Shown piece by piece: positions 14,491 through 57,437 of a stretch of DNA of 64,000 nucleotides. The stretch spans positions 868,001-932,000 of the forward strand of contig JBHGNT010000021.1 of NCBI GenBank assembly GCA_043228905.1, read 5' to 3'. Each line of letters opens with the position of its first letter. The first letter of the stretch is position 1. The notes below the pieces were generated by a model, which worked only from the letters and a program-made list of their open reading frames with translations, was not told where the DNA came from and did not search any database. This DNA is from Azolla caroliniana (taxonomy: Eukaryota; Plantae; Polypodiophyta). Position numbers and translations under genes: made by a program.

Positions 14491-14505
14491 ACTCAGACAC
14501 ACGCA

Positions 14506-17500: not shown

Positions 17501-17800
17501 GCGTATAGTTTTAATTATACGAATACGGGTAACAATACTGTCTTGTTATATGGTCTAGCAGGGCTGAACTATCTGAATGGGATATATGACAATTATCCCG
17601 GGATTCAGCAATCAGTTCTATCATTCACATTGCAAGGAGTGTCTGGTAATGTAACAACACGAGATTATTATCCAACAAAGGTCTTCTTTGATGGGAATGA
17701 GTGTACTATGCCAGATATATTACCTATAAGTTGTGCTCAAGAGGTTCTTCCGAGCATGCTCTGTGTAATCATTATACTTTTATTTCTTCGACTTCTGTAA
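14506..17800 (+). CDS. COBL: COBRA-like GPI-anchored cell-wall protein, COBL7 subgroup with N-terminal extension, about 632 aa, 2 exons
   Basis: Exons 14506-15025 and 16422-17800, joined in phase 1. It has a signal peptide (MSIFLLLLPLSLLAFISSSTQA), QPYAFKAT, GDITISYDV, GRLDYWNLQWTW, CCRNGTLLP, the CCVS motif, CPDNCGVSVNWH and PTKVFFDGNEC, and ends in a hydrophobic GPI-type tail. Confidence 0.95.
15152..15472. repeat. 107-bp x3 near-perfect tandem repeat in the COBL intron
   Basis: The unit gtgtctaatgtttc...caccaaaatgattta starts at 15152, 15259 and 15366. Confidence 0.95.
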
Positions 17801-22100: not shown

Positions 22101-25100
22101 AAATCTCCATCATTTGAACTCCAACTTCATACTTCATAAACCCATCCCTTTTCTGAGATAGTTCAAATAGATCATTTAGTGCTCGAAAATTCACACCCCA
22201 GTCATTTGGTGATGGGTTGTTTGGGCCCGTCTGCAAAAGTTGCATATGTAATTTGAGAAGAATTCAGCAAGAGGAAAAGGACAACCGATGTCTCAACACC
22301 TATCTGAATGCTATAAACTAACCATAGTGAAGGTCTTCCCGGATCCAGTTTGGCCATAAGCAAAAATGCATACTTTGAAACCGTCCAAAACCGACCTTAT
22401 TAGTGGTTGCGTGTCGAGGAAAACTTCCGCTGCAATATACCATTCCTTAATATAATACAAGACTTTAAACATCTGTACATTCCGTTTCTAGTCAAAACTC
22501 ATACAAGGACCTACCTTGTCCTGCAGTGGGTCCAAACACTTTATTGAATTTGAAGAGTTTGCGTTGATCTTTCCCTTGTTTGTTGGGGTGTGCAATCATT
22601 ATGGATCCTTTCTCTCCCACAAAATCCACTGTGCTATGACTGTCACTTTGTCCTGGCAAAAAGGGCCTTACCCTACAGTATACCCTGATATTTCCTGGGA
22701 TTCAATCACAATAGAATGTTCTTAAGCAATCCACATGTTCTGTAAGCTGTCCTACGTGAGATTGAAGAATTACCTTTCAGATCTTGAACTTGGTTGTAAA
22801 GCTCTCTATTCTCAGCGACTACTTTGTGGTATTCAGCGGCAGCTTGAGCAAGGCCATGGAGTTTGGTATCTGGCGCATTCATTATAAATCTCAGAACAAA
22901 GGCCCAGTTTCACAAAAATTTCCATCCAAAACATTTCGAACTAATCAATAGATCATACCAGCAGCTTCCATTTCCTTTCTCCATTGCTCTTTAGCATCCT
23001 CTATCTCGTCCCTGGTGCTTTCCAGTAATTGCTTTACATCCTTCACAGACATAAAACCACGTTCTCAATGTTTGAGACTACATTTGACGGGAAAAACTTC
23101 AAAATTCCCCAATCGTATGGATTGAGGAAATAGAGGTTGCATTCTCCATTCTATTGCTCAAATAGCACATACAATTGACAAATTGGGAATAAATTGATCA
23201 TATAACTGTTCAAATTGCACATCTATCTAATTAATTGCTCAAGAGAGGGTTGACCAATGACATCTGAGAAAAATCACAGGCGTTTAGATAAATTAAGAAA
23301 AAGTTGTGGTTAGTTTAGGTTTTCTTCCACTTAAAACAATATGTTTATGCCAGTAAAGGTAAACCACCTTGAGTTCTTTCTGTTGTGACTCTAAAATATT
23401 GGCCCGTCTCTGGTTAACTTTCTGTGCCTCTTCTAGCTCCATCTTCAAGTCGTTCAGATTAGCATGATCTCCTCCTAATTGATCTATTGCAGCAGCGGCA
23501 TGATCCTCCCTCATTGCCTTGTGGTTTCTCTTGCACTTAAAAAGTTCATATACAAACTTTCTTCAGATTTCACAGTGAAAGTGAATACAACGAACTTTAT
23601 CTCATATTATTAATGACTTCATCTCATATTATTAATGACTTCATCGACGAAACGTACCTGTGTTGCTGAGAGTCTGCGTTTAGATTCTTCCAAAACTTTC
23701 CGTAACATCACCTCAACAAGCTGTAGATGTACACCTAAGGAATGATTTCTACGAAGCAAAATACCAATTTGTAAAGAAACTAATCTTAATCTTTACTAAC
23801 CACAGGAACCTCTTCTGGCTTCTTATCGTGCAAAGCTAACATGATCAACTTCGCAGGGAACTCAGTTGAAACACTCTGTCAAGAGAAAGAATCGCTGTGT
23901 AAAAGGAAACCGTTTGTAGCCTATAGACATTCACCTAATCAGTTGTATTTCGATTACAAACTCAGAAGTATACCTCTAGACATATAGGTGTGTGAGGCAT
24001 TTCATCACAGGCTTCTAGTGTGTCCATGCCCTTAATATCGGTGGCATCATTGAACCGCTGGATCACATATTGCTCCCATGTAGCAGTAAAATCTGAACGG
24101 ACATAGGAGAGACCCAATTTAGCTACCATACAAGACAATACATTACATGCAAAGTACAACGCAAATGAAACTAATTACTCTTTAGCAAGCAGAACGAGAT
24201 AAGGAAGGATCAGCAGGAAAGCCATTAAACATTGATGAGAATAAATGCACTAAACTGAATGAGATGCATCATTTTTTATGCGAATGCTCCTAATTAATTA
24301 TTAGAAATTAATAAGAAAGAAGGGAGCAAAGTGGATCTTAACCATCATAATTCATACCAGCATTAGACAATTCCATCTCAGTTGAATTGAGTTCGCCATC
24401 AGTAGACTGCCCTCTGGAATGTCCCAATGTCACCTTTTGAGTAGTAGTTAAGGGACTCCCCCATTCATCGAAAAGGTTCTTATTCGTACCATCCAGTGTC
24501 AACGGTTTGCGAGACGGGCAGTGTGGTCGAGATGATTTATGCTCCGCAGATGCAAGCCTAGTAAAGGATTTGAGAGAACATGGAGATTTGTTGGGTACAA
24601 ATTTCCATAAGCTATGGCCTCCACGGAGCTGCCATTCTTGGTAAGCCTTTAAGGCTAAAATACAATCTACAACTCTAGCTGACGATAACCCTGTCTGTAA
24701 GCTGTCCCCCTAAAGGATCATAAATCACACAATAAAAAGCAAATTTTAAGGCAAAGGTCAAAAGGAAAATTCATTTTTCTTTTGTAAAGGTTTAGCTGTG
24801 CAAAGTTGATTGATAATTAGCCCGACACAAAATGGATAAAGATTGCGAAAAAAAAAGCGTATAATGTATATGCAAGGTAACAAAGCAATTTACTTTGTCC
24901 AGATCGGATGCTTGAAAGGAAGGTAGATTCAGTTCCTTCACAGCTACGAGAAAGTTTCTGACATTCTCGAAGTATTGATATGCAGAGAGTGCTACGCCTT
25001 GAGGCGGAGGGCTGGAAGGTGCTGGGTTTTCTACTATCTGAGACAGAAAATCAACTACGTCAACAATTTAAAGCACAGATAAAGATAATAAATTCCATTC

Positions 25101-26136
25101 CATCAGACAGATAGATTAACACAGGAACCCATAGGAAGAGTTGTGTATACATATAATTGGACAGGAACATAAGACGTTTTCTCAGACATATATATGATCA
25201 TTGATGTGCGATACAACGTCGATGTTTCCTCGTATACAATATTGCATATTTCTATATTCAAAATTGCACCTTCAGGACTGCCCCGGGATGGATTTTGTTG
25301 ATGAGATTGCACAGGACGAGTCCATTTCTTAAGCTCAGGCGGAGCTCCTCCTCTGATGGTTCCCTAGGCAGATCGGGTAAAGGACCAACCATATTATGCA
25401 GCCATGATGCAGCCTGAAATCTTCTAGCCGCTGCAAAGGATTATACATGAGTATCTTCATTTAGATGCTCGGAATAAAGAAAGCGTCGAGTCTTCGGTGT
25501 CCATGTCTGTACGCGTAAGAGAGAGAGAGAGAGATAGAGAAACTATGGACGGCAAGCAATGTTGGAACAGGCATAGTGGAAGAATAATAAGCATTACGAG
25601 ATGCCATTCATGTGTTTCAGGGAAAACAAGCATGTGGCATATAGTAAGGATAGAATTAGAATTCAAAAATATGAACCATAAGGATCCTGATTCAGATACT
25701 GTAGGAATAGAGAAAAAGGCATACAGGGAGTGAGCATGCATCCGTATGTGATAGAGAGGAAGAGATAATGTGCTCCTGACAATTGCCATAAGAATTAACT
25801 GAGAGAGAGAGATAGAGAGAGAAAGAAAGAGTCGCGTACCATAACTATGACGATGAACTGACACATAGAAAGAGTATAAGCATTACCTGATTCATTCGCT
25901 TTCCTAGATGCCAGATTCACATCGCAACTCGTGTTTCCTGCAACTCTAAGCTCATTCGGTTCGCAATGAGGAAGGAAAGATGAGGAATAGGAAGGAATGG
26001 CTTTGGATGGAGTCTGATTGCATGACGGCGGACTAGTTGCACTCATATCCATACTATCAGTACTGGTACTGGAGCTCCTTAACTCAGGCGTAGTACTTTC
26101 TTCCACTCCTTCTGCATTACCGATCCGCCGTGCCAT
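19166..26136 (-). CDS. KCH: Kinesin-14 with an N-terminal calponin-homology domain (KCH type), about 1230 aa, 20 exons
   Basis: Exons on the minus strand: 26136-25887, 25430-25270, 25037-24894, 24709-24358, 24092-23974, 23875-23801, 23720-23658, 23535-23368, 23040-22959, 22869-22774, 22694-22515, 22429-22323, 22230-22052, 21785-21621, 21538-21285, 21186-21023, 20931-20698, 20618-19993, 19827-19661 and 19272-19166. Phases are consistent (3693 nt). Motifs: CH domain [19 protein letters not shown]...YFENVRNFL, neck [22 protein letters not shown]-loop [24 protein letters not shown] and [19 protein letters not shown]; it ends KRWM*. Confidence 0.95.
20932..21022 (-). other. GC-AG intron in the kinesin gene
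   Basis: The downstream exon ([11 protein letters not shown]) needs phase 0. The only phase-0 donor before an in-frame TGA is CAG|GCAAAG. Confidence 0.75.
21786..22051 (-). other. U12-type AT-AC intron in the kinesin motor domain
   Basis: The 5' site is ATATCCTTT, the branch point CCTTAAC lies about 10 nt from the end, and the 3' terminus is AC. Splicing restores ...[12 protein letters not shown]... Confidence 0.92.
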
Positions 26137-26513
26137 GGCTGTCCTTAGCTGACTGAGAGTAGATTTGCTTCGACACGGTCTTCCCGCTGGAAAACGAAGA
26201 TGCAGCGAGCACAGGATTGAGAAGGAAGGCTGAATTGAAAATGCAACGAGGTAGAGCTAGGGAAGGATCACGGCTATGGCGGAAGAGTGATGGTACCAGT
26301 TTTGGATGGGATCAAGCAGAGGATTGGGAGGGGATTTACGAAGAAGAGATCGATCGGGTGGCGCCTTTACGTAGAGATCAGCAGAAGCTGAATCGGGAGA
26401 AGGAGATTAAGAACAGGAGGAGAAGAGATTAAGAGAGAGCAGACAGAAAAAGAGCGAAGCAGAAGACGAAGAAGATGAAGACGAAGATGAAGAAGAAGAT
26501 GAAGACGAAGCAG

Positions 26514-36426: not shown

Positions 36427-39400
36427 TCAAGAGTTGAGAATTGCTGCTTCCAACCTGTGTGACTTGATGGAAGTTTGCTTACGATGGAATGCAACAAGAG
36501 CCCTAGTAGCGTTTATCAAAAGACGTTGCTCTGATGTTCCTTCAGAATATGTGTGTGTTGGTCCTGCATGCCTTGGCTTCAATTTGAGGTTCAAAATCCC
36601 CCTCTTTTGTACACCTTCTAGCACTTGTTCATATGTTGGGCATCCTCTTACAGCCAGGGCACCAATTTGGATCTCATAGTGAAGCTTAACTGAAGTGAAA
36701 TTTATCTGCAAGTACCACAATGACTAATATATTCAAAACTTATCTCCAGTTTCAATTTCTTTGATGCACAATGTGAAAGAACTCATTTCAATTACCAGGT
36801 TAGGTACTACAGATTGCACTGATGATATAGTTTCTACCAATAAATTGATCGTCTTAGTTTGTGCAATCATTACAGCATGAAGTCGTTCTATCTCTTCTGG
36901 AGCTGAACATGTATCATGAATACTACCTAGACAAGATTCAATTATTCCTAGAATAAGTTCAGCCAATTCTGGAACGCCCGACTTTTGATAATTAGTCGTG
37001 TTGCCTGCCCATTCACAAATTTGTATAAGACCTTTCCATAAATGCATCCATTGGATACTTTCGGACGTCAACTGCCATCCTTGTTGCCTAAGGGCATTGA
37101 AAATAAGAGGAATGAGGAGAGAAGCACGATGGAAGAGGTCTGGATCTAGTGAGCCACCTGGTGCTGTGTTCATAATGTCTATAACATAGCGTAGAATAAA
37201 ACACAAGACGCTATTGGAGCCTACACTGAGTGGCAATCCTGAAATTCCATGGATGGGCATTGTAACCTTGAAATTGTCACTGTCACAGAAGGCGAAAAAT
37301 TCTAGTGCCTCCTTTGTTTCCACCATGCACCTTAAGAGGTTCAAACCACATTTAACTTTCAGTACTTCAGGAGCATCAGCATCAGCATTTTGCATTTTAC
37401 ACAAAGCCAGGAAAGATCTAATGCACTGCATCCATAATGAAGCTACTGATTGTGTCAAGATGCCAGGGCTCTGAAAAGACAGATCATTTGAACTTGGCCA
37501 CAACTGCGTGCACACAATCACAATATAGTTTGAGGTTTTATTGACACATTTAGCATCAGCAAAAGGTTCTCCTGAGTATTAGAAAAACATTGATCATTGT
37601 CAATACCTGTGTCAATTTCATCAGTGAACTATGATATATAATGGAATATGCCAAGATTACCCCTGCAGTTGTGTTTAACCAGAACTCTTCTTGGCTACTG
37701 AGACCAGGGCCAGGAGGGATAGAATCTATTTCTTGTGAGACAGAACCACCTCCAAGAAAGCTTCCCATGAAATTGTATATAGAATTTGACAGTGACCAAA
37801 TCTGTGAGGTACTTGCAAGTGATAAATCCTGTGGAGTTTCTGCATATGCCATGAGTGATTGTGCAGTTTGGAGGAGAGGTGCTAGAGGAGAAGACGGATG
37901 TGCCAGACTATTTATGTAAACGTTTTCACCCTCTCTCCATGAGAGAAGTAGGATGAATATTAGGGTGGCATCAAGTTCAAGGCACCTTCTATCACCAGAC
38001 AGCTTTACTGACAAAGCAGCAAGAATGGCATTCATTATATTGTTTTGAAAGAAATAACTTGCAACAACATTTGTGTTTACGTTATCGGTCATGGTCAAAA
38101 TGGTAAAGTAGAACCTGTAGAATATACACGATTTTCAGATAAAAGACAAACAACTATTAAAAGTCATCAGAAAGCATGAAAAATGACTTCACACAAATGG
38201 ATCTAAATTAAAGTTCATAAGCATGTCTATATTGCAATCCTACGGACATAATCATTATGGGAGATAAAATCTGACAGGAATCCATCTGCTATCGTGAGGA
38301 ATATTCCATTTAACCTTTCTCCATATTCATATCATGCCCTCAGACAATTTGAGGTTTCATGGAGTTTTATTTCTTTCCCATATTTCAAATGTATATTTAT
38401 TAATCACTACATGGTGTTGGCTATATGGCAGGCTTTTGTGTTTAATCAGACTACTTTTGAATGTAAGCAAACCCTCTATTATAAAGGAATTTTGTGCATT
38501 CTATCCAAAATAGAAATGTAACTTCGTATGAAAAGGACAAGGATCATTGTCCACCTAATAAAATAGTAAGAAGATACTTGATGACTGAAGCGGAAGTTAA
38601 GAGCAAATAGGCATTGAAGAGGAGATATCCAGGCAGAGTGGGCGATGGATCAAGTCTCCTCCTATCACCCGCACCTATAAAAGCTTGGATATCACCCTAT
38701 TTGGGCATGAAAAAGGAGTGGCAAAGACAGAAAAGAAGGATTTGGAAACTATTTGTAATCCACCGCATAGATTATCAGTGATATTAACTACTATTCAGTA
38801 CCATCCCACCTCTGCCAAACTCTTTTTCCCCTCTTTATTCTTAAGTAATTAATTCCATGAGCATTGAGTGTCACCTAAGTAATTAATTACGTGATTAAGT
38901 ACAGTGTGCTGTTAAAACTTAAGTGTCTGAGAGAGTGATCGTCCAGCCATTATGCCATGTGCTGTACGCTTCAGCTGCCTTTGGCCGACTTGTTAACTGA
39001 CAGACCTAAATTGTGTGGCGCTTAGAAGACATTATGGTTTATACCTTGTGACCAGCCTCCTTGTTAAGAACTCGACCTCACCGGTGCTGCCCAAGGCCAA
39101 CCACGGATGGCCTATCAAAGACCCCACAATACCACAACCAGCACATGGTCTATTGTGCAAGGAATTTAATGCAGAAAATGAATATGTTTGTCCGTGACTT
39201 GATTGATTATTGTGGTTTTTTGTGCTCTTCTAAACAACTAAATCTGCACATAACAAGTGTGGGATCTGTATGGTGCTCAAAATGACGTATTAAGAGCTTC
39301 ACTTTGAACTTGATACCCAAAAATCATACAGCCATTATACAAGTTGAAAATATCTACTTCCAGTTAAAGTGTAAACGAGAGTAGCTTTACCACTTCATCA

Positions 39401-41872
39401 AACAAAATTAGAGTTGTTTATCAATTATCACAATCATGATTCTGTGAGTATTATCCCCCCCCCCCTCCCATAACCATGAAAAATCAATACAGCTGTAGTA
39501 TACAAATATACTTCATACATTTTAAATATGAAAATAAACCTTATATTTACCAAATTTCATTACTTTTCACCATTATTTTACATCCTCACACATTTACCTC
39601 AAAGATAAGGATTTCACAGGGATAGGGACATCGTCTCTCTGAAGTAAATTTGAGACTCTATTGATAAGTTTTGCAAAATATGAATCTGCATTTTCCATAG
39701 ATCCAGCAATCAAACCAATCACAGTAAGACCCTGTACAGAAATACAACATTACAATACACGTGAAAAGGAAATTCCCGTGGCTGCATAATTATCGATAGT
39801 AGGGTACATACTTGTTCACTGAACCTTTTCTTGAAGATTTCCTGGAATAGTACCATCAAGGTCTCCAGTGCATGAGCGACTCTGATGAAATTTCCGTCAT
39901 CCAAATACCTGGAGAGTTGAAGATCAAAACATGAATCACATAAGATGAATTTCAGTCTAATCAATTCTCCACATCGATGGAATAAATAAAGCTTCAATTT
40001 TATAAATAGAGAGAAGAAAAACATAGCTTCCAGGTTCCAATTATGCTATTTACATTCATGAATACCATATACAGCTTTTAATTGTTAAATAACATAGCTT
40101 CCAAGACGTACCGCAAGACTCATGGCTAAATGAGTTTTGTATGCTATTTGATTATCTTAGTCAGAAAATAACTGACACATTACTTGTTAGCCAAAAACGC
40201 ACTGTTAGATGCAGCATATATAGTCCAAGCCTTCCAGAAAATAACATAAAATTTTCGACTGCTTGAAAACTGAGCTCTACATCTTGCAAATCCTTGCTTG
40301 CCAATTCTGGCATAGAAACATTTAGAAATGACACACGACTATGAATTTTCTCCATAGCAAAAGAAACATAGTATACTCTATATCAGCGCCAGTTTACTGT
40401 CAGAGACAGAATCAGTATAATGTTTCAGAGTAAATGCAATACTCATGTGATTATGAATTTTCTCCATAGCAAAAGAAACCTAATATACTCTATATCGGCT
40501 CCAGTGTACTGTCAGAGACAGAACCAGTATAACATTTTAAAGTAAATGGGGTAATCATATGTGAGCTTGATTGCATTAAATAACTCATGCATACAATACT
40601 ATCATGACACAGGTTTTTTATTTTCTCTTACAAAGTACTATATTAATCAAAATATATTTATTTCCTGAAGGATTAGGACAAATCACAAACTATCTAGAGA
40701 GTTTGGACGAGCCAGTAGAGTACACAAGATATCAGGCCTATTCTGGGACAGGTTTATGATTGAGACAAAAGCATATACTACCGATTCAATATTGCTTGCA
40801 TTAACTTGTGCAGTTATCATTGTGAGCATGGTGTGCAAAGATATTGCACATTACAAAACGAGTTGTTCAGGCAAAAATGAATATGAATCTATATCTCCAA
40901 CTTACAAAGAGCAAGTTCCGAAAAGCTCGTTCAACACCAATTTCAAGTCCTTTTTTAGCTGTACTTCAGTAAGGTTTGAAATGCTTTGTATAAGAAATAC
41001 TTTGTTTACCTGTATAAATGTAGAAATAGCAACGCTCTCATATGGGAAGTTAGGATATTTTGATACATAAAATAAAATTCATATCAATCGTTCATTAAAA
41101 TGTGTAGAGTAAGACAGGTTAAAAGGTAGATATAAAAAGATGTTCTTGAAAGATAGAAATGAGTGTGGAAAATGTTAAGGTTAAATAAATAATAGCATAC
41201 AATCAATTAGACACATGCACAAGAAGATTTATTATAGATCGTTGCGCAAGGACCAAGTGGTGTATTATTATTCTGTTGTACAAACAAGGCCACATTACCC
41301 TTGTTTCTTCAATGTCAAATCTTTACCAACGAATCTTAACATAATCTTTTGTATTTTGCAGTATGTAAGAAATAATATGCAAAATGATTAAATATATTCA
41401 CGAACTATGCTAAAAAGATAAGGCAAATGATTAGCAAAACATATTTTAATAGCTTATTTATTAGTTTTCTTATTATACAGCAGTATAGTGCCTAGTTGAG
41501 GTAAAGAGAAAAATTCGATTTCAAATTATAAGAAACCTACAGTAATGAATGGGATCCCAATGAGCACCATCTTACACTTGGGTATTTATGATAGATCAAT
41601 AAACCAATCAATAAAGCAAGGATAAGTAGGTAGATTATCCTCTCAGCCATAACAGGCATAATACCAGGGAATATAAAGCCACTTACTTTTAGTAGCAACA
41701 GTTCATCCCAAAACCTTGTCAATGCTGCCTGTCCTTGGATTCCAGAATCTTTCCTTGAATGAATTAAACTGCACCCTGAGAAAATCTCCTTGTATAAATG
41801 CACAAACTTCTCCTCCAAAGGCGGCTTGGTTCTTTGATTATTAGACATCATTGATTCCTGTGATTGTTGCAT
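36427..41872 (-). CDS. ARMH3: ARMH3/C10orf76-like armadillo-helical protein (DUF1741-type C-terminus), about 671 aa, 7 coding exons
   Basis: Exons 41872-41687, 41009-40906, 39908-39812, 39731-39598, 38114-37607, 37503-36796 and 36705-36427 join in phase (2016 nt). Motifs recalled from ARMH3: PLEEKFVHLYKEIF, RFWDELLLLKVN, IRVAHALETL, TMTDNVNTN, WMHLWKGLI and PTYEQVLEGVQKRGILNLKLK. Probable 5' UTR exons extend to about 42980. Confidence 0.8.
40340..40560. repeat. Intronic tandem duplication, about 112 bp x2
   Basis: tatgaattttctccatagcaaaagaaac...tactgtcagagacagaa.cagtataa...agtaaatg occurs twice. Confidence 0.85.
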
Positions 41873-43509
41873 TGTTATTTCAGTGATTAATGGCCAAATT
41901 CATGAATGCAATGAGCGTCTTACAAACCTGTCATGAAAATATTTTATCAGGATATCACTTACATACTCTGATTAACCCCAACCACAAGTTCATTGTACTC
42001 GGGACATGAAACTATACAAAAATGACACGAATATTAACTTTAAATTGTTATTAAAGCATGATAATAATAATCTTATACGTACCATATGGCTGCCAAAAAT
42101 GAAATTCGTATGTTACTAATTTGAAGAAAACAAAATCTAGTATCCAAGTTCTTTTCATTGTCCGAAATTAGCTAGTTGACATCAAAATGTTTGTTTCTTG
42201 GACATTAAAATGTTGAGTACTTCCACATGGTCATGGAATGGTTCCTTAATATGAAAAAAAAAACACTTTGTGCCTTCCACCTAAGCTGCGCAAGAAGAGC
42301 TCGAAGCCAATCCCAGGGAACAGTGAAGCTTCATAGGAACCATAGAAAATTTCTCAGAACTTCATCAAAATGCTTGTTATTGAACTTCAACTTTCAAGGA
42401 TTTCCATACACAAAATCCTTGTGTAATGAGTAGGATATGATGCATATGGCGAAGAGATTTCGTACTTTTCTGGTTACTTGAATTTCAAAATCTTCAGAAT
42501 TTACAGCATAGTAATAAGAGGAATCCATAATGCAAGAGATCAAAAGAGCTTTATGTAAAACAATTGTGCAATGATACATAAGATGAAGTGATTCCAAACG
42601 CAGTTCAATACCAAATTGCTTCAAAATCTCAAAAACAATTTGCATGCCTATGCAAAACTGGCAAAAAAAAAACAATTTTCAAAAATCTCAACAGTCTGTT
42701 TTCATGGTTATGGAAGACCGATCTTCATGCAAAAAGAAAAAGGAAAAATTGCGTAAATATGTGAATGCGCGCGTGCCATGATACATCAGAATGAGAAATT
42801 TTGGTTTACCTTGGTCCTACACAGGTGAATTGTCTGTGTCCCTTGTACTTAAAAAATCTCCGGGAGCCGCGAAGAGCCGTCTCCTTCGTTTAGCTGTCTC
42901 CTGTCTTCTTCATCTTCTGCTGCCGCTGTCTGCTTCTTCCGTATCGCCTTCTGTCGTCGGTCTTCTGTCTTCTTCTCTTTCAAAGACTATTAAGGCCTCC
43001 TCCGGGTTTCCCAGTTTAGGAAATTGTGGCCTGAGGTTTCCCGATTAGGAAACACGGGCCCTTGGAGTTTTTTTCCCCGAAACATGGTATGTATTTTGCA
43101 ACAAACACATAACATATGTATGTGTGTTTGTCCGGCCGTTTATTTATCACGAGTTTATGGTGTTTTCACGATGAGGAAATAGACCCTCGGTGTTTTTCTT
43201 CCGAGTCATTGCATCGAACACCCTCTACTCGTCGACACATTCCTCACATTTTGCGGTCATGTATGTATGGTTGCTTGTTTAGTTGTTTATTTGAGCCTAT
43301 CTAATAGGGTCACTTGTTACATACCCCTCCCTCGCCTATACAAGATCAAACCCTCTCATATATACTGCGATCGTAGCCTTGGGTTACTTTTGTACAAAAA
43401 TTCAGTTGTATGCCCACCACTAGAACCATTTACCTTCCATTTTTTTATTTTTTTATTTTATTGTCTTGGGGGTCGGAGGGGGGGAGATCTTCGAAGATGT
43501 GCTTTACAC

Positions 43510-45289
43510 TACCTCATATGAATTAGGTATCCTCTTCTTCTATATTACATGCTTGTGCATATTGATGAAGCGAAACACACATATGTTAAGAACTTATTGA
43601 AGTCTTACCCTTCCTTAAAGCAATCGATTTTTCTTTCCCACACCCCTTGACTATAATACATAGGATAACTAAATCAAAAAGTGTCGGGTATCTTCTTATG
43701 TCTTTCATAGAAGTAGCTTTCCACGTATGGTGTCGTTGTGGTGATGTTTTCCCTTGTTAGTTGAGTTCTCCTACGTCTCTAATCTTATTTGAATAGAGAG
43801 AAAAGTTTATAGTGCAACTTGAATGTTTCAAGAGCAAAAAGGTGTATATTTAAGTAATGAATTGTTACGTCAGAGATAGAAACATTTTTCCTTGTTAATT
43901 GTTGTCTCCTTGCCTTCCAAACATGTGTATTGTGCATAAAAAAGATAAACAAACTGATAAACAATCTACTTTTTCCTAATATTATTCGATGGGACTAGGC
44001 GTTATGAATGGGAGATAAATTCTAAACCCCTTGAGTTCACCACACAAAACATTGGGGGGAGTACATCATGTCATATCCATTGTATGGAACGTACAAACCT
44101 ACAGTGATCATGTAGAGATGTGTTGAGAGGGTAGATTTGATAAGTGGATAAGGTAGATTTTGATATGGCAAGGTAATGAGTGCGCTACAAAATTCTAGCC
44201 CTTTTTACTGCTTAAAACATTCATTAGGATTTCCTACTACAACTACAAATAAACACAAAGTCCACAAGAAGAAATTGTGGGACATAGACCAATAGATTCT
44301 TAGGATAATTAATGCATTTATAATCCTTGATTAAGCATGCTTAAGAAAAAGCGGTGGTGCTAAGTAAATCCAGTTAGTGCAGACGAACATTAGTAAAGGG
44401 CACCCATTGCATTTTCATAAATAATGAAAAAATGGAGGGTATTTTCCGAAATGCTAGAAACAAATTCCATGGAATCATGAGCTTCTTCTAGAATCGATTC
44501 TTTTCAGAAATATGCTCCCGTGGAATCATGATCTTCTTCTTCGATCAGTGCTTGTCAGAAACATGTTCTCATGAAAGCATAATCTTCTTCGACGATCAGT
44601 TATTTTCAAGTGTCTCCTCCGTGGTAACATCAAGGTACGAGAATCAGAGTTTTTTTGATCCAGTCGTTGTAACCATGAGAAAATCACTATAAGCAATGCT
44701 GTCCACCAATCTAGATCTAAAAGAGAATCAAGAGAAACATATCATAAAGGGACAAACTTGTAGTGAAGATCTTGCGTTTATTTCATTACTCAAGGCTTGA
44801 GCCTATAACAAGGACTTTTGCAAAGGCATGCATTTACATGCCAACATCATGAAGAGAGGTTTACTCCAAAAGAGCCTGTATGTAGGTAGCTCTTTGATCA
44901 ATATGTATGCGAAATGTTGTCACTTTGCAAAAACAACACAAGTTCCTATGCAAATATGTTTTAGTTGGCAATGCTTTGGTAGATATGTATGAGAAGTGTG
45001 GTCAGCAAGTGCTTGAATAGCTTCCAATCTGAGATGTTGTCAGTTGGAATGTCCGTATTGCCGGATATGCCCACAAAGAGAAAGGTCATGAAGCATATAT
45101 TGTTTTGAAAGGATGCAACATGAAGCTCTATCTCCCGATTCCGTGCCCTTTGTTTCTATCTTGAAAGCTTGTGGAAGCAATGGTCTCATCATCAAAGGCA
45201 AGCAAATTCATGAGAAGATTGTAACTTGTGGCTTGCTTGAAACACACAGTGTGCTCGGCACTGCAGTGGTGGATATGTATATAAATTGT
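43510..45289 (+). repeat. Diverged local duplicate of about 47478-49502 (PPR upstream region plus 5' coding part)
   Basis: Collinear similarity throughout, for example atgaattaggtatcctcttcttctatattacatgcttgtgc (43518) versus atgaataaggtatctacttcttctaaattacatacttgtgc (47485), continuing into PPR codons. Confidence 0.92.
44696..45289 (+). pseudogene. PPR pseudogene, a truncated copy of the PPR gene at 48666
   Basis: It has the same ATG context (aagcaATGctgtccacc) and a TGT>TGA change at 44798. A deletion of about 227 bp (matching 48916-49142) is joined at a GTTC microhomology, and further stops and indels follow. Homology ends at about 45289. Confidence 0.92.
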
Positions 45290-45639
45290 CACCCCCTTAT
45301 TACCACATCTTATGTGGCCTAAGTATTACACAAGCTTTTGTATTAGGAAGGTTTTCTTATAATTTAAAATGCCTACATGATGACCCGTTGATCATGGGAA
45401 ACATTAACGACAAAAGGTTTTGCTACTTCTAACATAGAGAAACGATCAAAACTATATTCCCTTAAAAAGATACGGAAGATCACATCATTGAGTCATCGTT
45501 GAAATCAATTACATCGATATCCGAACCAAAAAACAAGGAAGGAAATTTGTCAAACATAAGCACTATTTTCAGGTCGAGGAACTTAGATACTTTGAGAGGA
45601 AACAAAAGTATGTGTGGCAATATTTCTCGGCGATCGGAG

Positions 45640-46383
45640 TTAGTCCCACTTGTCGTATGCCTTGAAGACTGGGTTGCGGCGAATGACTGTTTGAATGCCA
45701 TCAGGCACAAGGAGTAAGACACTAGTGCAGAATCGTTTCACATGGGCCTCTTCTACGAGTGTGTCAGCGAACACCTTATTGAACTCGAGGCGAGGGTAAG
45801 CCTTCACGACCTCCGCCACAGTATCGGGGTGGATGAGCTCCGCGTAGTAGCCGAGCGCATCCAATTGCGCCCCAAACCGCAACATCTGACCCTCGGGAGA
45901 GAAGCCGTAGCTCCCGGCGTCGACATCCTTGTGCCTACAGATGGATTCCATGACCGTGTCCCCGAGATGTGGCGGGGCCCCGGCCACGTCCACGAGAAAT
46001 GTGCGCGCTGCCATACCCCCGTGCAGCTCGAACGAAACGTGTGACTGCTGGAACGCGTGGCTTGTGCACTTCACGTCGTGCAGCAAGGCCGCGAGGTAGA
46101 ACGTCTCGGGGTCCCACCCGAGGTCGGGGAAGATGTCGGTAGCGATAATGGTTCCAAAGTAGTACGTGCGGAGGCAATGCGAGAAGATGGAAGGGGGGAG
46201 CTCAACCTCGGCGAGCTTCGTTGCCGCTTTTGTCAATGGGGTGGATGGAACCGGAATCGATGACAGCGGAATGTGTCGCGGCTGGAGCTTTCCATCTGCC
46301 ACTCGTTGCAATGCGTCGGTCACCTCTCTCTGAATGCGGAAGTAGTCAAACTCCCCCCCATTGGGGTTACCATTGGATGCCAT
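45640..46383 (-). CDS. HD-domain metal-dependent hydratase/hydrolase, cyanamide hydratase (Ddi2/Cah)-like, 247 aa, intronless
   Basis: An uninterrupted ORF from MASNGNP to YDKWD* shows the family motif order: PSTPL, LPPSIFSHCLRTYYFG, ETFYLAALLHD, SFELHGG, ESICRHKD, LDALG, IHPDTVAEVVKAYPR and FADTLVEE..K. It is visibly GC-rich; one sampled 60-mer had 35/60 G+C. Confidence 0.88.
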   Translation of the reverse strand: MASNGNPNGGEFDYFRIQREVTDALQRVADGKLQPRHIPLSSIPVPSTPLTKAATKLAEVELPPSIFSHCLRTYYFGTIIATDIFPDLGWDPETFYLAALLHDVKCTSHAFQQSHVSFELHGGMAARTFLVDVAGAPPHLGDTVMESICRHKDVDAGSYGFSPEGQMLRFGAQLDALGYYAELIHPDTVAEVVKAYPRLEFNKVFADTLVEEAHVKRFCTSVLLLVPDGIQTVIRRNPVFKAYDKWD

Positions 46384-46559
46384 GGTATATATATATATAT
46401 ACAAGTTGTGTGTGTGTGTGTGTGTGTGTGTGTATCTTAATCCAGTTACAATACTTCAACTTCTTTTTCAATGTCTTCTTCAACAATATAGGTATTCTTC
46501 TTCAACTTCTTCTCTGAGTGGATTCTTGCTTGTGATGCCATTACATCCTTCGCCTCATC

Positions 46560-46567
46560 TATATATA
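46560..46567 (-). promoter_or_regulatory. Putative TATA box of the HD-domain gene
   Basis: TATATATA lies about 180 bp upstream of the ATG. It is followed on the minus strand by a GAA-rich and (CA)n leader resembling other leaders in this window. Confidence 0.5.
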
Positions 46568-46716
46568 GTACACACACAAACCAACCAACAGAGACAAAAG
46601 AAGCCAAAGAAGAAAGGTCAAAAGTAAGGGTGGGCTAACAATATTGACCCTTCCAACTAAAGGCCTGCCATCAAATTTCAAGTGATCAATTCCCAATCAT
46701 CGTTATCAATATAAAT

Positions 46717-46770
46717 TGTGAATAGTGTGCTTGGCATGTGAATAGTGTGCTTGGCATGTGAATAGTGTGT
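46717..46770. repeat. 20-bp tandem repeat x2.6
   Basis: tgtgaatagtgtgcttggca is repeated in tandem. Confidence 0.85.
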
Positions 46771-48665
46771 TTTTATTTGATTCCTCATGGTGTACTCCTA
46801 CTCATCGTACTGCGTTGACAGGTTCACATACCACATCATTCATTCTTGTGCTTCGCAATCAAATCAGATGAAGCAAAATGTTTTCAGTTTTTTGTCTGTC
46901 TAGTTAACAATTTTGTTCCTTTAGGTGCACACATTGTATACAATTTCGTGACGAAATAAGAAAGGCCATGTCACCTATGGACAAGTTGAACATTACGCCT
47001 CATTTGCTTACCTTTCTTTGTGAAGAGTTTCTTTCAATGTTTTATTTTGGTAGATCTCATGTGTGGGTGCATGTTTGTATATAATGGGCAACTTCTATAA
47101 ATTGGATGAATTGGGTTTCTCATGAAGTCATTCTCATAGTAAAACATTTGACTATTGTGGTTTCTTCATTTACTCTTAACCAAAATCATGTGCATGTTAG
47201 ATGTGATGAAGAAATTGTTATGACCTTCCACTTGATGGCCTAGGAAGGAATGAGCGCATGCTTTATAGCACATCCAAAAGCATGTATGCATGTGTGTAGC
47301 CATTTATTTAGCCTAGCTACTAGGGCCCACATGGTACATACCCCTCACCTATACATGACGATACCTTGGGTAATACCACAATCATAGTGTTGAGCTACTT
47401 TTGAACAAAACTTGGTTGTATGGCCAACGCTAGAAAGTTAATCCCGTTCACCTTCCCTTTGGATATTCTCCTACGATGCCTCGTATGAATAAGGTATCTA
47501 CTTCTTCTAAATTACATACTTGTGCATTTTGATAAAGCGGAAGACACATATGTTAATCAATTGATTGAAGTCTTGCTCTTCCTTAAAGCAATTAACTATT
47601 CTTTTATACACCCCTTGACAATAATACATATGATAACTAATGTTCAAGCAAAAGGTGTTGGGTATCTTCTGATGCCGTTGAGAAAAGTAGCTTTCCACAT
47701 GTTGTGTCGTTGCGTTGTTTCTTTTCCTTGTCAATTAAGTTCTAGTGTATCTCTCATCTTTTTTGAACAGAGAGAAAAGTTTCTAGTGCAACTTGAATGT
47801 TTCAAGAGCAAAAAAGCGTATATTTTAGGCATGCATCGTTTTGCCAAGATAGAAACATTTTTCCTTGTTAATTGTTGTCTCCTTGAATTACAGAGTGGCA
47901 ATGTGTATTATACATCGAAAAGACAAACAAATTGATAAACGTTGTACCTTTTCCTAATATTATACGATGGGACTGGGCATTTGTCTCATGGTATGAATGG
48001 GAGACAAATTCTAAAACCCGAGGGAGTTCACTACACAAAACATTGGGGGGAGGACATTGGATCATATCTGTTCTATGGAAGGTAGATATAGAAACATACA
48101 AATTTACATTGATGATGTAGAGAGGTGTCAAGAGGGTAAATTCGATAAGTCAAGAAGGTAAATTTCGATATGGTAAGGTAATGAGTCCGCTAAAAAAATC
48201 TAGCCCTCTTTTCCGTTTAAAATATTCATTAGGATTTTCTCTTGCAACTACAAATAAAGGCAACGTCCTTATAAGAAATTTGTGGGACATATCATAACTG
48301 ACATATTCTTAGCCTAATTGATCAATACATAATCCTTAATTAAGAATGCTCATAGAATCCACTTAGGACCGATTAACATTAGTAAAGGACATTGTATTTT
48401 TCCACGAACGCAAGGGAGATCAAGAGATGTCATTTTCATAAATACTAAAAGATGGAGGGTATTTTCATACATTCTAGAAACAAGCTCCATGGAAGCATGT
48501 GCTTCTTCTGCATTCAATTCTTTTCAGAAACATGGCCCCGTGGAAACATGATCTTCTTCTACGATAAATTCGATTCAAGTGTCTTCTCTGTGGTAACATC
48601 AAGGTAAGAGAATCAGAGTTTTTTTTTATCCAGTTCATGTAAACATGACAAAATCACTATAAGCA

Positions 48666-51440
48666 ATGCTGTCCACCAATCTAGATCTAAAAGAGAATCA
48701 AGAGAAACATATCATAAAGGGACAAGCTTGTAATGAAGATCTTGTTTTCATTTCATTACTCAAGGCTTGTGCCAAGAACAAGGACCTTTGCAAAGGCATG
48801 CATTTACATGCCGACATCGTGAAGAGAGGGTTGCTCCAAAAGAGCCCATATGTAGGTAGCTCTTTGATCAATATGTATGCAAAATGCGGTCACTTTGAAA
48901 AAGCAACACAAGTTCTAGAAGAGATTCCGATCCGGAATATAGCATCATGGAATTCTATCATCGCAGGATACGCCCACCACAGCCGAGGACACCAAGCATT
49001 GCATTGTTTGGAATACTTAGAAAGTGAAGGATTTTCTCCAAACTCAGTGACATTCATCTGTATCTTGAAAGCTTGTGGCACCACACATGCCTATGAAGAT
49101 GTAGGCAAACAAATCCATGAGAAGATTGTGAAGAGTGGGTTCCTATGCAAAGATGTTTTGGTTGGCAATGCTTTGGTAGATATGTATGCGAAGTGTGGTG
49201 CTCTTGAAAAAGCTCAACAAGTGCTTGAAGAACTTCCGATCCGAGATGTTGTCAGTTGGAATGCCCTTATTGCTGGATATGCCCACGAAGGGAAAGGTCA
49301 TGAAGCGCTATATTGTTTTGAAAGGATGCAACATGAAGCTCTATCTCCTGATTCCGTGACTTTTGTTTCTATCTTGAAGGCTTGTGGAAGCAGTGGCCTT
49401 ATCATCAAAGGCAAGCAAATTCATGAGAAGATTGTAAGTTGCAGCTTGCTTGAACGACACAGTGTGCTCGGCACCGCGCTGGTGGATATGTATGCCAAAT
49501 GTGGTCTACTTGAGAAATCACAGAATGTTCTAGAAGGGCTTCCTCTTCGAAATACCATCTCTTGTTCAGCATTGATTGCCAGATACACCCAACATGGTCG
49601 ATGTCATGAAGCTTTGAATTGTTTTGAATGGATGCAAAGTGAGGGTATCTCTCCAAATTCGGTAACTTTCATTTTGGTTTTGAGGGCTTGTGGCAAAATA
49701 CAAGCTCTGGACAAGGGCAAACAAATTCATGATGAGATTGTACAGCGCAACTTGCTGGAAAATGATAGTTTACTTGGCCATGCTTTGGTAGATATGTATA
49801 TCAAATGTGGAATGCTCTCAAAAGCACTGAGTGTGCTCAAAGAGTTACCTATTCAAGACACAGTTTCTTGGAATGCACTCATTGCGAGGTATGCTGAACA
49901 AGGGCAAGGTCATGTAGCTTTGAAATGTTTCAAACAAATGCAAAGTAAGGGTTTCTCTCCAGATGCAGTAACCTTCATTTGTGTATTGAAGGCTTGTGGC
50001 CTTTTGGGGGCCATAGAAAAAGCCAAACAAATTCATGACGATATTGTGAATAGAGGCTTGTTGAGGAAAGATATTGTGCTTGGTACTGCTCTAGTGGATA
50101 CGTATGCTAAATGTGGTGTGTTAACAAAAGCGAAACAAGTGCTTGAAGAGCTTCCTGCTCGGAATATAGTCACTTGGAATGCACTAATTGCTGGGTATGC
50201 CCAACAAGGGCAATGCCAGGAAGCATTGAATTGTTTTGAATGGATGCAAAGTGAGGGCCTCTTGCCAGATGTTTCTACCTTCACTTGTATTTTGAAAGCT
50301 TGTGGCCAAGCAAGAGATATTGACAAGGGAAAACTGATTCATGAAGAGATTTCAAGTAGGGGCTTGGTGGGGAAAGATAAAATTGTTGGCACTGCTTTAA
50401 TAGATTTCTATGCCAAATGTAGCATGCTCGGAAAAGCACACGAAGTGCTCGAAGAACTTCAGATTCGAGATATAATATCATGGAATGCATTAATTACAGG
50501 ATATGCCCAACTAGGACAAGTTCACAAGGCACAGAAATGTGTCGAACAGATGAAAAACGAGGGTCTTTGGCCAGATTCGGTCACTTTCATTTGCATCTTA
50601 AAGGCTTGTAGTAGCACCGGAGCTATAGACATGGGCAAACAAATCCATGGTGAGGTTACAAGTAGAGGCTTGCTAGAGAAGGATATCAGCCTTGGGAATG
50701 CTTTGGTGGATATGTATGCCAAATGTGGTAAGCTTGAAAAAGCACAACTAGTGTTGGAAGAGCTTCCTTTTCGGGATGTTGTCTCGTGGTCAGCATTAGT
50801 TGCAGGATATGCTGAGCAAGGGCAAGGGCAAGAAGCAGTAAGGTGTTTAGAACACATGAAAACTGAGGGTCTCTCACCTAATAGAGTGACATTCTTGTCT
50901 GTTCTAAGTGCATGTTCTCATGGAGGGCTCTTAAATGAGGCCCAAACGCTTTATACTGATATGACTGGACAACTCAACATACCTCCAAACACAGAGCATC
51001 ATATGTGTATGGTGATGGTTTTTGGATTGGCTGGCCATTTCGATGATGCTATGTCCGTGATTAGAGTTATGCCATCGTCTCATGATCCTACGTTGTGGCT
51101 TGCACTATTGGGTGCTTGTAAAAAATGGGGAAATGTGAAGCTTGGGAGGTTAACTTTTGATCAGATAGTACAATTGGATAATAGTTGCTCCACAGCATAT
51201 GTCCTTATTTCGGACATTTTTGCCATGGCTGGAATGCATGAGGATGTAGAAAAGATCAATGCCTTGAGGCTAAAATATGCTACTTGGAAGAAACAAGGAA
51301 ACAATTTGGGGGTTGATACGAGTGGAAATGTTCATGCATTTTCTAGGAAGGATATACAACACTCTTTAAGTAAAACTATGTATACAAATGAAAAAGCTAT
51401 TACATGCAAAATGGCAAGTGTTATGGTCACAGTCTCCTAA
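48666..51440 (+). CDS. PLS-class pentatricopeptide repeat protein with E domain and truncated DYW start (organellar RNA-editing factor type), 924 aa, intronless
   Basis: About seven PLS triplets (LVDMYAKCG...; RDVVSWNALIAGYA; PDSVTFVSILKACG), then VTFLSVLSACSHGG, LWLALLGACKKWGNVKLG, AYVLISDIFAMAG and KKQG...GNVHAF. There is no HxE/CxxC/DYW. No obvious transit peptide is present, so the true N-terminus may differ. Confidence 0.93.
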   Translation: MLSTNLDLKENQEKHIIKGQACNEDLVFISLLKACAKNKDLCKGMHLHADIVKRGLLQKSPYVGSSLINMYAKCGHFEKATQVLEEIPIRNIASWNSIIAGYAHHSRGHQALHCLEYLESEGFSPNSVTFICILKACGTTHAYEDVGKQIHEKIVKSGFLCKDVLVGNALVDMYAKCGALEKAQQVLEELPIRDVVSWNALIAGYAHEGKGHEALYCFERMQHEALSPDSVTFVSILKACGSSGLIIKGKQIHEKIVSCSLLERHSVLGTALVDMYAKCGLLEKSQNVLEGLPLRNTISCSALIARYTQHGRCHEALNCFEWMQSEGISPNSVTFILVLRACGKIQALDKGKQIHDEIVQRNLLENDSLLGHALVDMYIKCGMLSKALSVLKELPIQDTVSWNALIARYAEQGQGHVALKCFKQMQSKGFSPDAVTFICVLKACGLLGAIEKAKQIHDDIVNRGLLRKDIVLGTALVDTYAKCGVLTKAKQVLEELPARNIVTWNALIAGYAQQGQCQEALNCFEWMQSEGLLPDVSTFTCILKACGQARDIDKGKLIHEEISSRGLVGKDKIVGTALIDFYAKCSMLGKAHEVLEELQIRDIISWNALITGYAQLGQVHKAQKCVEQMKNEGLWPDSVTFICILKACSSTGAIDMGKQIHGEVTSRGLLEKDISLGNALVDMYAKCGKLEKAQLVLEELPFRDVVSWSALVAGYAEQGQGQEAVRCLEHMKTEGLSPNRVTFLSVLSACSHGGLLNEAQTLYTDMTGQLNIPPNTEHHMCMVMVFGLAGHFDDAMSVIRVMPSSHDPTLWLALLGACKKWGNVKLGRLTFDQIVQLDNSCSTAYVLISDIFAMAGMHEDVEKINALRLKYATWKKQGNNLGVDTSGNVHAFSRKDIQHSLSKTMYTNEKAITCKMASVMVTVS

Positions 51441-54585: not shown

Positions 54586-56919
54586 ATTACGTATTACCAA
54601 TATTTGGCTTTGGGAACTTCTAAAATGAATGGTCAAGTTTCATTTTCGTGCATGATATAATATGAAATTATGTGGGAATACCATAAAAAGTGACACATTC
54701 TTATCAAAGTGTGTGCTCCTTATAAATGTTTCCACTCCTACCAATTCAATAATTTGACCAGCATTTTAGTGAAATGGTGGAGCACCCTTTTCAAGAACAA
54801 TTCATCGATCCATTTGAATTAATAACTCACACTCATGCGAATAAGATGGAATTAGCTATTACTATATGCTTGGCATTATAAACATGTTCCGTGATATTCC
54901 AAATCTCACACTTACCTATAAGATGGAATTAGATACAATTATATTATTGGGAAAAAACTTTGAACACCTTAATATCCTTGTGTTTTCCTTTATTTCCCAG
55001 CTTAAGGTGTTTGGTCTTTAACTACACCTTGAGAAAAATATATTGTGCCACTTGCACATGTTTATCTTTCAAACGCCAACACATTTATGTGAAAGTCAAA
55101 CCCAAGAGAGGCAAAAATCTACTATATTGTAATGCCAAGACCTTAGTAAGTTTCCGTAAAGGTAATAAGAAAGGGTGAAAGCAATGGAAGTTACATGCTT
55201 GCTCATGAGTCATGTTGTTTTACTTAATTCTATCATCTAAGTTTAATGATTTTAAATACTCTCTCTATCTTGAATTAATGCAAAGCCTTATTTATTGGAT
55301 ACTTCTGTATATAATATATTATATCACAAATTACAATAATAATGTATGACTCGTGAGTATGACTAACCGATGTATGGGGTTTGCTTCTTATAGTCAATGG
55401 TTTCTCTATCACTATCCTTGAAAACTTTTACCTTTCAGTTCATTAATAACACGATCCTTTATGTGTCCACAAGTTAATAAATTCATTCATGAATGTTCAT
55501 TGTTGCTTTCTGTTTTGTGGCCCAACCCTTTTGAGCTCATATGAGGTCTCGTCGAGTGTTTATAAAGGCCGTCTATTTTGGTAAAAGAGAACTCGTCCAC
55601 GTTGGAAAGAAAATGTACAATTTCACATTTTTATGTTTCATCGGGCAAATCATTGAGTTTTTCTTTTGGTGGCTAGTGGAGGCTTTTGCCTTGAATTGTT
55701 AGCCTCAGGGTATTGTTGTATTGTCATGTCCAATACACCCTTAGTTGTGTACAAACCCACGAGGAGCATGGATGTTTCATGGGAATGTGTGAAGCCAGTG
55801 AGGTTGAAATTCGAAAGCCCAAAAAAGAATTGATGGTGTTCCTTTCTATGTTAATACAATTGAACTTCACTTTCACATGAACATCTCCCCAAATGAAAGT
55901 AGCGGATGATGTTCCCGACAAAAAACTCCTCAACGTACATTCATTTTAATTTGGAAAAGAGAAGAAGAAGTAACATATGTCTAAATTTTGATTACAAAAG
56001 AACCATTGAGTATTGAATTTCATTTCCCTAGTAATTAATCGTGTTGCATTATCAACTATTGTAATCATTAATTTTTGGATTTTGACTTATTAATAACCGA
56101 TCTTTGATTAATTCATGGAATTTTGGGATTTAGCTCCGCAATGTTTTGATATGGATATACTAGCAATGCATTATCCTTTGAAACAAATGCATTTAAGGAA
56201 ATGTGATGAATGTAGGAGCAAATCAGAATAATGCAATGGTATTTTAGAGTTTCTTCGTTTTGTTTTGTTGTTAGTTAACATGACTTTTATCAGTTTCTTA
56301 AGGTTTTGGTTTAGGATACTTCTATGATAAAAGTATACCTAAAGTATGACGCATTCTTCATTCATATCACCTTGTGGTACATGAATTCTTAGTGTCCCCA
56401 TACATTATAAATTTATATGTTTTTACAACTAATACAACCTTGGGGGATTGATGGAATGTCTATGTTTTACAACATCTTGTCACATGCATTGCCACACAAC
56501 CCATGGGATGTGTGTTTTCTATGGGATCCCATCACATGCTTCCTTCAAACACCCAAGGAACATTTGGTTCTACATTGTCTTTTTTGCGTAAATGTTGTGA
56601 CTTGTGATGAGTCTTGACTTTTTCTTTTTCTTCCTATTTACATGCATTCTCAAACATTGGAAGAGAGAAACAATGAATATATCTATCATATTATAATTAC
56701 TCAAACATTTATGTAATCGAGAATAAATGAATGAATTGACCACAATTGTTCCAGGTTGACATAGTTCGTTTGGAAAGATGAAGCAAAACTCGGAGGTCCT
56801 CCTTGATTTCATTATCACATTGTTCACTCTTTCCTTTTGTTGTTTGTTGCACATGCATCTTCATTGTCTATTGCATATACAACTTGATTCATATTTGGCC
56901 ATTCTCTTTATTCCTTTCC

Positions 56920-57437
56920 AAATAATGAATCTTGTTTCGATGGTGGCTTGTTTATCGGTCTGGCACATTTGGACCAACCGCTGTAAGTTTGTTTTTCAAC
57001 AACAAAAGATCCCTAGTGGTGAGGTATTAATAAATATCTGGTTTGAGTTGGTCTCTTGGTTGTGGGGACGATACGACTCGATTAAGGGGGAATCTGATGC
57101 AGCTGAAAGATCTCGATCAAAGTTCTTGCTGAAATGGGGTAATTCTCCTATGGTCGGCAGATCATCATCAGGGCCTCAATGGCACTACCAAGCACCCCGA
57201 TGGCAGTTTCCCCCAATAGTTTCCAACAACGTCTAGGTGCTGTAAATTTGTATAGTTATGGTACAAATAACTAGGTTATTTGAGTTGTTTGGATACGTTT
57301 GTTGAAAATGAGGTGGGGACTATGTCCGCTTTGGTGGGAAGGCCAGAGTGAGGGCTGTTGAGAGGAATTTTGAGAGTTCTATGATGTAATTTTGTTTGCT
57401 AACTAATGCGAAGCAGTATTTTTTTGGAAAAAAAAAA
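56920..57437 (+). mobile_element. 5'-truncated LINE (L1-like) 3' end
   Basis: Reads VWHIWTNRCKFVF...IWFELVSWLWGRY, the W-x-IW-x-x-R-x-x-x-x-F motif of plant L1 ORF2 C-termini. A 3' UTR and poly(A) follow at about 57428-57437. No TSD was found. Confidence 0.7.

Follow-up and report, generated by a model that had tools for sequence, protein, structure and literature searches.

How does a fern come to carry a gene of an enzyme family that has so far been viewed as protecting microbes from cyanamide, and what might such a gene do there? According to PMC4650597, natural cyanamide was detected in a few legumes only (four species of more than 550 tested). In this study, we analyzed one such gene in a 64,000-nucleotide stretch of the Azolla caroliniana genome (hereafter the window). 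The account that we favor, and consider probable with appreciable room for doubt when all of its parts are taken jointly, is that a Cah/Ddi2-family gene entered plants by ancient horizontal transfer, was inherited vertically and was apparently lost in angiosperms, and that its product is a predicted single-zinc hydratase of the nitrile type. The gene and its upstream elements are as follows.

45640..46383, minus strand: coding sequence of the cyanamide hydratase/Ddi2-family HD protein P0001, 247 aa, an intronless ATG-to-stop frame
46386..46433, minus strand: (CA)n and (TA)n microsatellite leader, adjoining the ATG on its 5' side
46561..46567, minus strand: TATA-like box TATATAT, 184 bases 5' of the ATG, a putative promoter element

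The intact, intronless 247-aa frame described in the original prediction was recovered on the minus strand at 45640-46383, and the TATA box (46567-46561) and microsatellite leader (46386-46433) that it mentioned were both located. The alignment of P0001 with its homologs contained no gap calling for an intron. All seven motifs of the predicted layout were present in P0001, starting at residues 46 (PSTPL), 69 (HCLRTYYFG), 93 (ETFYLAALLHD), 117 (SFELHGG), 150 (RHKD), 185 (HPDT) and 196 (YPR). Two of them do not extend across the family: PSTPL occurred in one and HPDT in none of 13 named fungal proteins. Contigs from runs X7, X8 and X10, each presumed to be RNA or of a type not on record, matched the gene with one difference in 508 bases and left 46542-47000 uncovered, a faint hint of expression at most. 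In two runs, the first presumably RNA and the second of unrecorded type, contigs ended at 46536 and 46520, downstream of the TATA-like box; this too is no more than a weak hint that the box is functional. None of the sequencing runs matching the gene was recorded as RNA.

First, we asked to which family the protein belongs. P0001 scored 158.4 bits against NCBIfam TIGR03401, the cyanamide hydratase family (curated cut-off 109.85; E 1.9e-46; profile positions 4-212 of 228). The cut-off was also passed by all seven other plant-clade proteins tested, whereas all four bacterial-type proteins fell below it. Only chains of yeast Ddi2 were returned by a PDB sequence search (E 3.4e-26), an H137N structure among them. 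All top Foldseek matches of the AlphaFold model (pLDDT 88.9) were likewise Ddi2, with its all-helical HD fold (TM 0.75-0.77, rmsd 2.0-2.3 A, E 4e-11); the best listed non-Ddi2 protein had an E of 0.025, and other HD proteins reached a TM of at most 0.41. Thus, profile score, Ddi2 sequence match and fold match all uphold the predicted Cah/Ddi2 type. The residues that matter for its chemistry, taken from the alignment and site table, lie at the following positions.

46177..46179, minus strand: codon of His69, equivalent to the Ddi2 zinc ligand His55
46075..46080, minus strand: His102-Asp103 (HD motif), equivalent to the Ddi2 zinc ligands His88-Asp89
45928..45933, minus strand: His151-Lys152, equivalent to Ddi2 His137 (kept) and Gln138 (changed)
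45856..45873, minus strand: Gly171-Ala176 (GAQLDA), equivalent to Ddi2 156-161, with Thr157 replaced by Ala172 and Asn161 by Ala176, as in most bacterial relatives

Ddi2 numbering was derived by hand from the PDB alignment and agrees, for His55, His88, Asp89 and Thr157, with the review PMC8177086, in which His55, His88 and Asp89 are the zinc ligands and a predicted role is given to Thr157. In the alignment, the residues of the zinc-ligand set H...HD are kept in P0001, and the fourth Asp ligand of HD hydrolases is absent, as in Ddi2. The H...HD...H...D series of the original prediction therefore stands in part: its late Asp, D175, aligns with Ddi2 D160, but the usual fourth HD ligand position (Ddi2 Thr157) is Ala172. 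The equivalent of His137 was His in all 64 rows of the alignment; a catalytic role for this residue in Ddi2 was reportedly described by Li et al. in 2019. All three substrate-site residues of Ddi2 compared, Thr157, Gln138 and Asn161, differ in P0001 (Ala172, Lys152 and Ala176), and Lys replaces Gln138 in ferns. The T157V change reportedly abolishes Ddi2 function, and Gln138 and Asn161 are important at the substrate site. Thr filled the 157 position in 28 of 28 fungal-side rows, and Ala did so in all six ferns, all three liverwort-type rows and 14 of 21 bacteria; Thr was found in four of six gymnosperm-side rows, so this site can switch. At position 171, just before it, Gly occurred in every one of the 15 plant rows and the 21 bacterial rows, and in 3 of 28 fungal-side rows, and Asn161 was present in 17 of 28 fungal-side rows and in none of the 15 plant or 21 bacterial ones. 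By these residue counts at the equivalents of 138, 156, 157 and 161, the active site of the plant proteins reads as intermediate between bacterial HD proteins and proven cyanamide hydratases.

The rival explanation that survives best shares our view of the origin and differs in function: the plant protein would be a metal-dependent phosphohydrolase or some other HD enzyme that kept the function of its bacterial relatives. We judge it unlikely, though worth real attention. Positions 171-176 of the fern and liverwort proteins read like those of bacteria (Gly171, Ala172), and HD proteins are mostly hydrolases according to PMC8177086. However, the fourth metal-binding Asp of such hydrolases is missing, as in Ddi2, other HD proteins fit the model poorly, and the 157 site switches easily, as the gymnosperm side indicates. 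Nor do bacterial gene neighbourhoods indicate a substrate: of 84 records, four plasmid regions were read, and all four were mixed, three with oxidoreductases and two with cupins. As a separate observation, the bacterial-type relatives P0291, P0293 and P0221 are fused to a DJ-1/PfpI domain or an alpha/beta hydrolase. The DJ-1 family includes isonitrile hydratases, and the DJ-1 fusion is a possible clue to the substrate class.

For the nitrile-type hydratase that we prefer, one zinc would be bound by His69, His102 and Asp103, by analogy with Ddi2. A small nitrile would be held on the zinc through its nitrogen and water added to the C-N triple bond with the assistance of His151; cyanamide would yield urea, usable through urease. 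Its role would most likely be the detoxification or recycling of a small nitrogen compound. That P0001 hydrates cyanamide in vitro seems to us nearly as probable as the opposite. That cyanamide is the natural substrate is doubtful, because Thr157, Gln138 and Asn161 are changed, the compound is limited to few legumes, and the gene, by its dates, is older than legumes by a wide margin. Our searches returned no named match to the HD gene from legumes, the group with natural cyanamide.

Second, we examined the distribution of the gene. Orthologs were found in ferns (Pteridium aquilinum, Adiantum nelumboides and Psilotum nudum), gymnosperms (Cryptomeria japonica and Welwitschia mirabilis) and the liverwort Calypogeia fissa; those of these records that come from EukProt, three in number, have transcript-assembly names. 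Identity to P0001 was 62-63% in Polypodiales, 55% in Psilotum, 38-47% in gymnosperms, 42% in the liverwort and 31-36% in fungi, rotifer and bacteria. An HMMER scan of 1.84 billion representatives gave 1066 matches at E 0.001, and sources were looked up for about 20 of the 150 listed. In four protein searches, three of them word-limited and with most matches lacking a source name, there was no named match from an angiosperm, moss, lycophyte, hornwort or alga; the claim that the family is not a standard angiosperm gene is consistent with this result. The lineage-specific domestication that the original prediction implied has to be given up, since orthologs span ferns, gymnosperms and a liverwort. 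Beyond plants and fungi, the bdelloid rotifer Adineta vaga (P0031 cluster/P0233) carries a family member on an 18-Mb contig, which branches at the base of the fungal side and is likely another transfer.

Third, phylogenetic analysis was used to place the plant proteins. A first FastTree was built on 170 rows with lengths of 190-300 aa and on a single fern-type row below that range. Next, 91 rows were picked by hand, and 27 long-branch or near-duplicate rows were dropped to leave a 64-row IQ-TREE analysis under LG+C20. Its rows comprised six ferns (three named plus the query), six on the gymnosperm side (three named), three of liverwort type (one named and two unnamed records), 28 on the fungal side (13 named fungi, one rotifer and 14 without a name) and 21 bacteria (11 named loci and 10 assigned by position). 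Groups were named after inspection of the tree, and its weak point is where the root falls, given the length of the branch to the bacteria. Ferns formed a clade (100/98) with Psilotum sister to the others, as in the species tree; the gymnosperm side (99/94), ferns plus gymnosperms (97/93) and the fungal side (98/91; 981 of 1000 bootstraps) were also recovered. Plants and the fungal side were together separated from bacteria by a long branch (100/100). The bacteria-rooted topology placed the liverwort type first, followed by ferns plus gymnosperms as sister to the fungal side (92/70); this last grouping of euphyllophytes with the fungal side was found in 920 of 1000 bootstraps, with an SH-aLRT of only 70. 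Land plants were thus not one clade in the best tree, so two plant acquisitions are possible; their monophyly appeared in 77 of 1000 bootstrap trees and was not rejected (p-AU 0.34). AU tests did not reject all plants with Umbelopsis (0.13) or with Dikarya (0.077), and rejected euphyllophytes with Umbelopsis (0.004) and with Dikarya (0.026). The plant proteins therefore lie outside the sampled fungal clade, and nesting of all plants within fungi is disfavored but not rejected. Among other candidate sources, the AU test ruled against a cyanobacterial donor, as represented by two rows of the tree (p-AU 6e-68), and a viral vector was dismissed because none of nine pattern matches in viral contigs was a relative. 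A search of metagenomes for the liverwort-type gene gave 110 pattern matches, none of which was confirmed.

Could the gene instead have been inherited vertically since an early eukaryote and been lost from algae, animals, mosses, angiosperms and numerous other lineages? The full support for plants plus the fungal side against bacteria, the single fungal-side clade and the unrejected monophyly of plants would all fit such a history, and a fungal-side clade of five rows could be a protist or an alga. Yet many independent losses would be required, the four protein searches gave no named algal or protist match (20 of 150 listed HMMER matches looked up), and the family is mobile, as indicated by the rotifer copy and by fungal rows out of species-tree order. 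We therefore regard this descent as quite improbable. When orthologs were compared with a spread across algae and land plants in species-tree order, the pattern named beforehand as evidence for vertical inheritance, the land-plant part did look vertical, but no named algal homolog was seen, and a horizontal origin close to or at the base of land plants stands.

Far less credible is the idea that this fern, in its own lineage only, recently captured the gene from a fungus or a bacterium. Such a capture would explain an intronless gene, matches without any named flowering-plant source and an unusual composition: GC was 0.577 and GC3 0.71 in the HD gene, as against 0.41-0.47 and 0.32-0.44 in nine of nine other measured window exons, and the highest-GC 744-bp stretch of the window is the HD gene. 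The predicted GC richness relative to the window's other exons is thus real, but its reading as a mark of foreign origin is not. In native dirigent, UGT and BAHD exons of the same genome (42 loci fetched and 37 counted, leaving out two identical loci and three with at least two stops), GC3 ranged from 0.37 to 0.87, seven of 37 reached 0.71 or more and nine of 37 reached a GC of 0.577, so we rejected GC richness as a transfer signal. Furthermore, six named plant species carry the gene, identity to Pteridium, Adiantum and Psilotum (55-63%) exceeds that to fungi, rotifer and bacteria (31-36%), the ferns follow species-tree order, and a fern-only origin from Dikarya was rejected (p-AU 0.0001). Fern-only recent capture is therefore refuted by the orthologs.

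The genomic surroundings in the window are those of a plant genome.

6743-11111, plus strand: CBP60-like gene, an ordinary plant neighbour
about 14500-17800, plus strand: COBRA-like gene, an ordinary plant neighbour
19989-26256, minus strand: kinesin gene, an ordinary plant neighbour
36733-41899, minus strand: multi-exon plant gene, no Pfam match in three exon frames tested
43534..45280, plus strand: degraded partial duplicate of the PPR locus, downstream flank of the HD gene, 77% to 47501-48915 and 87% to 49139-49493
48666..51440, plus strand: intact PPR gene with E motif, 924 aa, upstream neighbour
56760-57236, plus strand: 158-codon open frame, no Pfam match, apparently similar to the C-terminus of a reverse transcriptase of LINE type

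A short-read contig of run X1 (45195-46385) joined the gene to the PPR-derived flank and one of run X2 (45980-46746) bridged the other junction. Gene and flank depths were equal in X1 and X3, and were 15-16 and 24-30 in X2 (about 0.6). Least credible of all is that the locus is a chimera of the assembly or a contaminant contributed by an associated fungus or bacterium. In favor of this, the full 6 kb is not covered by any one short-read contig, depth falls in X2, and the assembly may have been built from one of these runs. Against it, both junctions are bridged, DNA runs from three studies cover the region, two more copies lie in plant context on other contigs, and other ferns have orthologs. 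This bears out the earlier view of a true plant locus. The X2 depth drop over 45195-46746 could reflect a hemizygous block, heterozygosity or bias. Since the HD gene is placed between the decayed partial PPR copy and the intact PPR gene, it is suggested that the window copy moved in during or after the local PPR duplication.

The 523-Mb assembly contains two further, dispersed copies of the HD gene, making three in all. The paralog on contig C116 (77134-77870) is 78% identical to the window copy and has three single-base indels, and that on C18 is 73% identical with six indels and two stops; the flanks of both have no match to the window flanks and are of plant context. The window copy showed a dN/dS of about 0.10 against each other copy (dS 1.1 and 1.5), so purifying selection acted on the gene family for a long time. 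The C116 paralog lies near the end of a 78-kb contig, beside short TTTAGGG repeats and an apparently LINE-like fragment; its indels may mark a pseudogene or a consensus error. In three runs, contigs had a C-terminus similar to that of the C116 paralog, with loose ends at 45704. Over 45625-46385, X7, X8 and X10 held an extra copy of about 88% identity to the window gene beside the 99% copy. This assembly contains nothing that corresponds to the extra copy, which may be a homeolog or belong to a related species as a paralog.

Returning to the ancient entry that we prefer, the gene would have reached land plants horizontally hundreds of millions of years ago. It would then have been handed down vertically in ferns and gymnosperms, as well as in some liverworts at least, and apparently been lost in flowering plants. 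Plant and fungal proteins would share one ancestor from a widespread bacterial HD subfamily, and this shared ancestor in the tree points to one plant-fungus exchange. The idea of a microbial gene acquired by a plant is thus retained for the ultimate origin, given the bacterial outgroup, but not for a fungal donor as such, as the plant proteins are not inside the sampled fungi. Transfer to plants from a fungus of an early unsampled lineage is our tentative choice, itself held with less than even confidence. A path from a bacterium to plants and on to fungi appears rather unlikely, separate transfers from one bacterial lineage slightly more so, and any other route more so again. On the second path, the first land plants would have captured a bacterial HD enzyme whose bacterial-type active site was kept in liverworts, ferns and gymnosperms; an early vascular plant would then have passed the gene to fungi. 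In these, Thr157 would have become fixed first and Asn161 afterwards, and the gene would have spread. The shape of the best tree, with the liverwort type first and then euphyllophytes sister to the fungal side, fits this sequence. An origin of the cyanamide hydratases of fungi (Myrothecium Cah, yeast Ddi2/3) in a gene of early land plants is nevertheless, in our estimate, unlikely, though well worth keeping in view. The identity of a well-supported fungal-side clade (P0021, P0038 and P0242-P0248) bears on the direction; a search for members of the same clade gave one weak match in 121, and its nearest ESM Atlas clusters were from Ascomycota and Basidiomycota.

Compared with known systems, yeast Ddi2/Ddi3 (PDB 6DK9, 6DKA and 6DKD) and Myrothecium Cah resemble P0001 in fold, length, zinc ligands, His137 and the SFE motif, and like P0001, which passes the TIGR03401 cut-off, they are without the fourth Asp ligand. 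P0001 differs in its identity to Ddi2 of about 28% in structural alignment, with Ala, Lys and Ala at the Thr157, Gln138 and Asn161 sites, in its plant host and in its branch outside the fungal clade, and its activity is a prediction from sequence. The Cryptomeria japonica RefSeq proteins called 'cyanamide hydratase DDI2-like' (e.g. XP_059076319.1) belong to the same plant clade (47% identity to P0001), were named by automatic annotation only and occur in a tandem array, in contrast to the three dispersed copies here. This array (SUGI_0457580-0457650) has at least five family members, several of them truncated. Bacterial HD-domain proteins from Actinomycetota, Pseudomonadota, Bacillota and cyanobacteria share with P0001 the H...HD...H core and commonly the G-A-x-x-D-V segment, but they have about 27-36% identity to it, fall below the TIGR03401 cut-off and are set apart by a long, fully supported branch. 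Ancient transferred genes of non-flowering plants include the microbe-derived Tma12, aerolysin-like and PAD genes of ferns (PMC9477723), about 20 fungus-to-plant transfers (PMC12448838) and a bryophyte macro2 gene from Mucoromycota (PMC7181705). These genes resemble ours in that they belong to microbial families, are kept patchily in seed-free plants or gymnosperms, were duplicated later and likely serve in defence or detoxification. The plant HD copies differ in that ferns, gymnosperms and a liverwort share the gene and that they branch outside the clade of the presumed donor, which makes either transfer direction possible.

Full-text literature searches listed no paper devoted to a plant member. 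The family may already appear in one of the large catalogues of transferred genes; Ma et al. reportedly compiled one for land plants in 2022. The word 'cyanamide' did not occur in the main text of PMC9477723 or PMC12448838, nor in the readable portions of the supplements of PMC9023351, PMC11906373 and PMC6786969 (for the last, a part of its orthogroup table). It is already known that ancient microbial genes are kept in non-flowering plants and that the Cryptomeria proteins are auto-named DDI2-like. What appears to be undescribed is a group of plant proteins within this known enzyme family that have a pocket of bacterial type and branch apart from the fungal enzymes; the group is ancient and was probably acquired horizontally.

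The fungal cah gene has served as a foreign selectable marker in crops. That ferns, gymnosperms and a liverwort conserve a native subfamily which is older than legumes implies that its substrate is another one than cyanamide, and a more ancient one. The gene is not the product of a recent domestication event; it appears to record a previously unreported ancient transfer between land plants and fungi, the direction of which may reverse the usual one. If the fungal family proves to be plant-derived, the plant enzyme would point to the ancestral substrate of a family whose cyanamide specificity looks odd.
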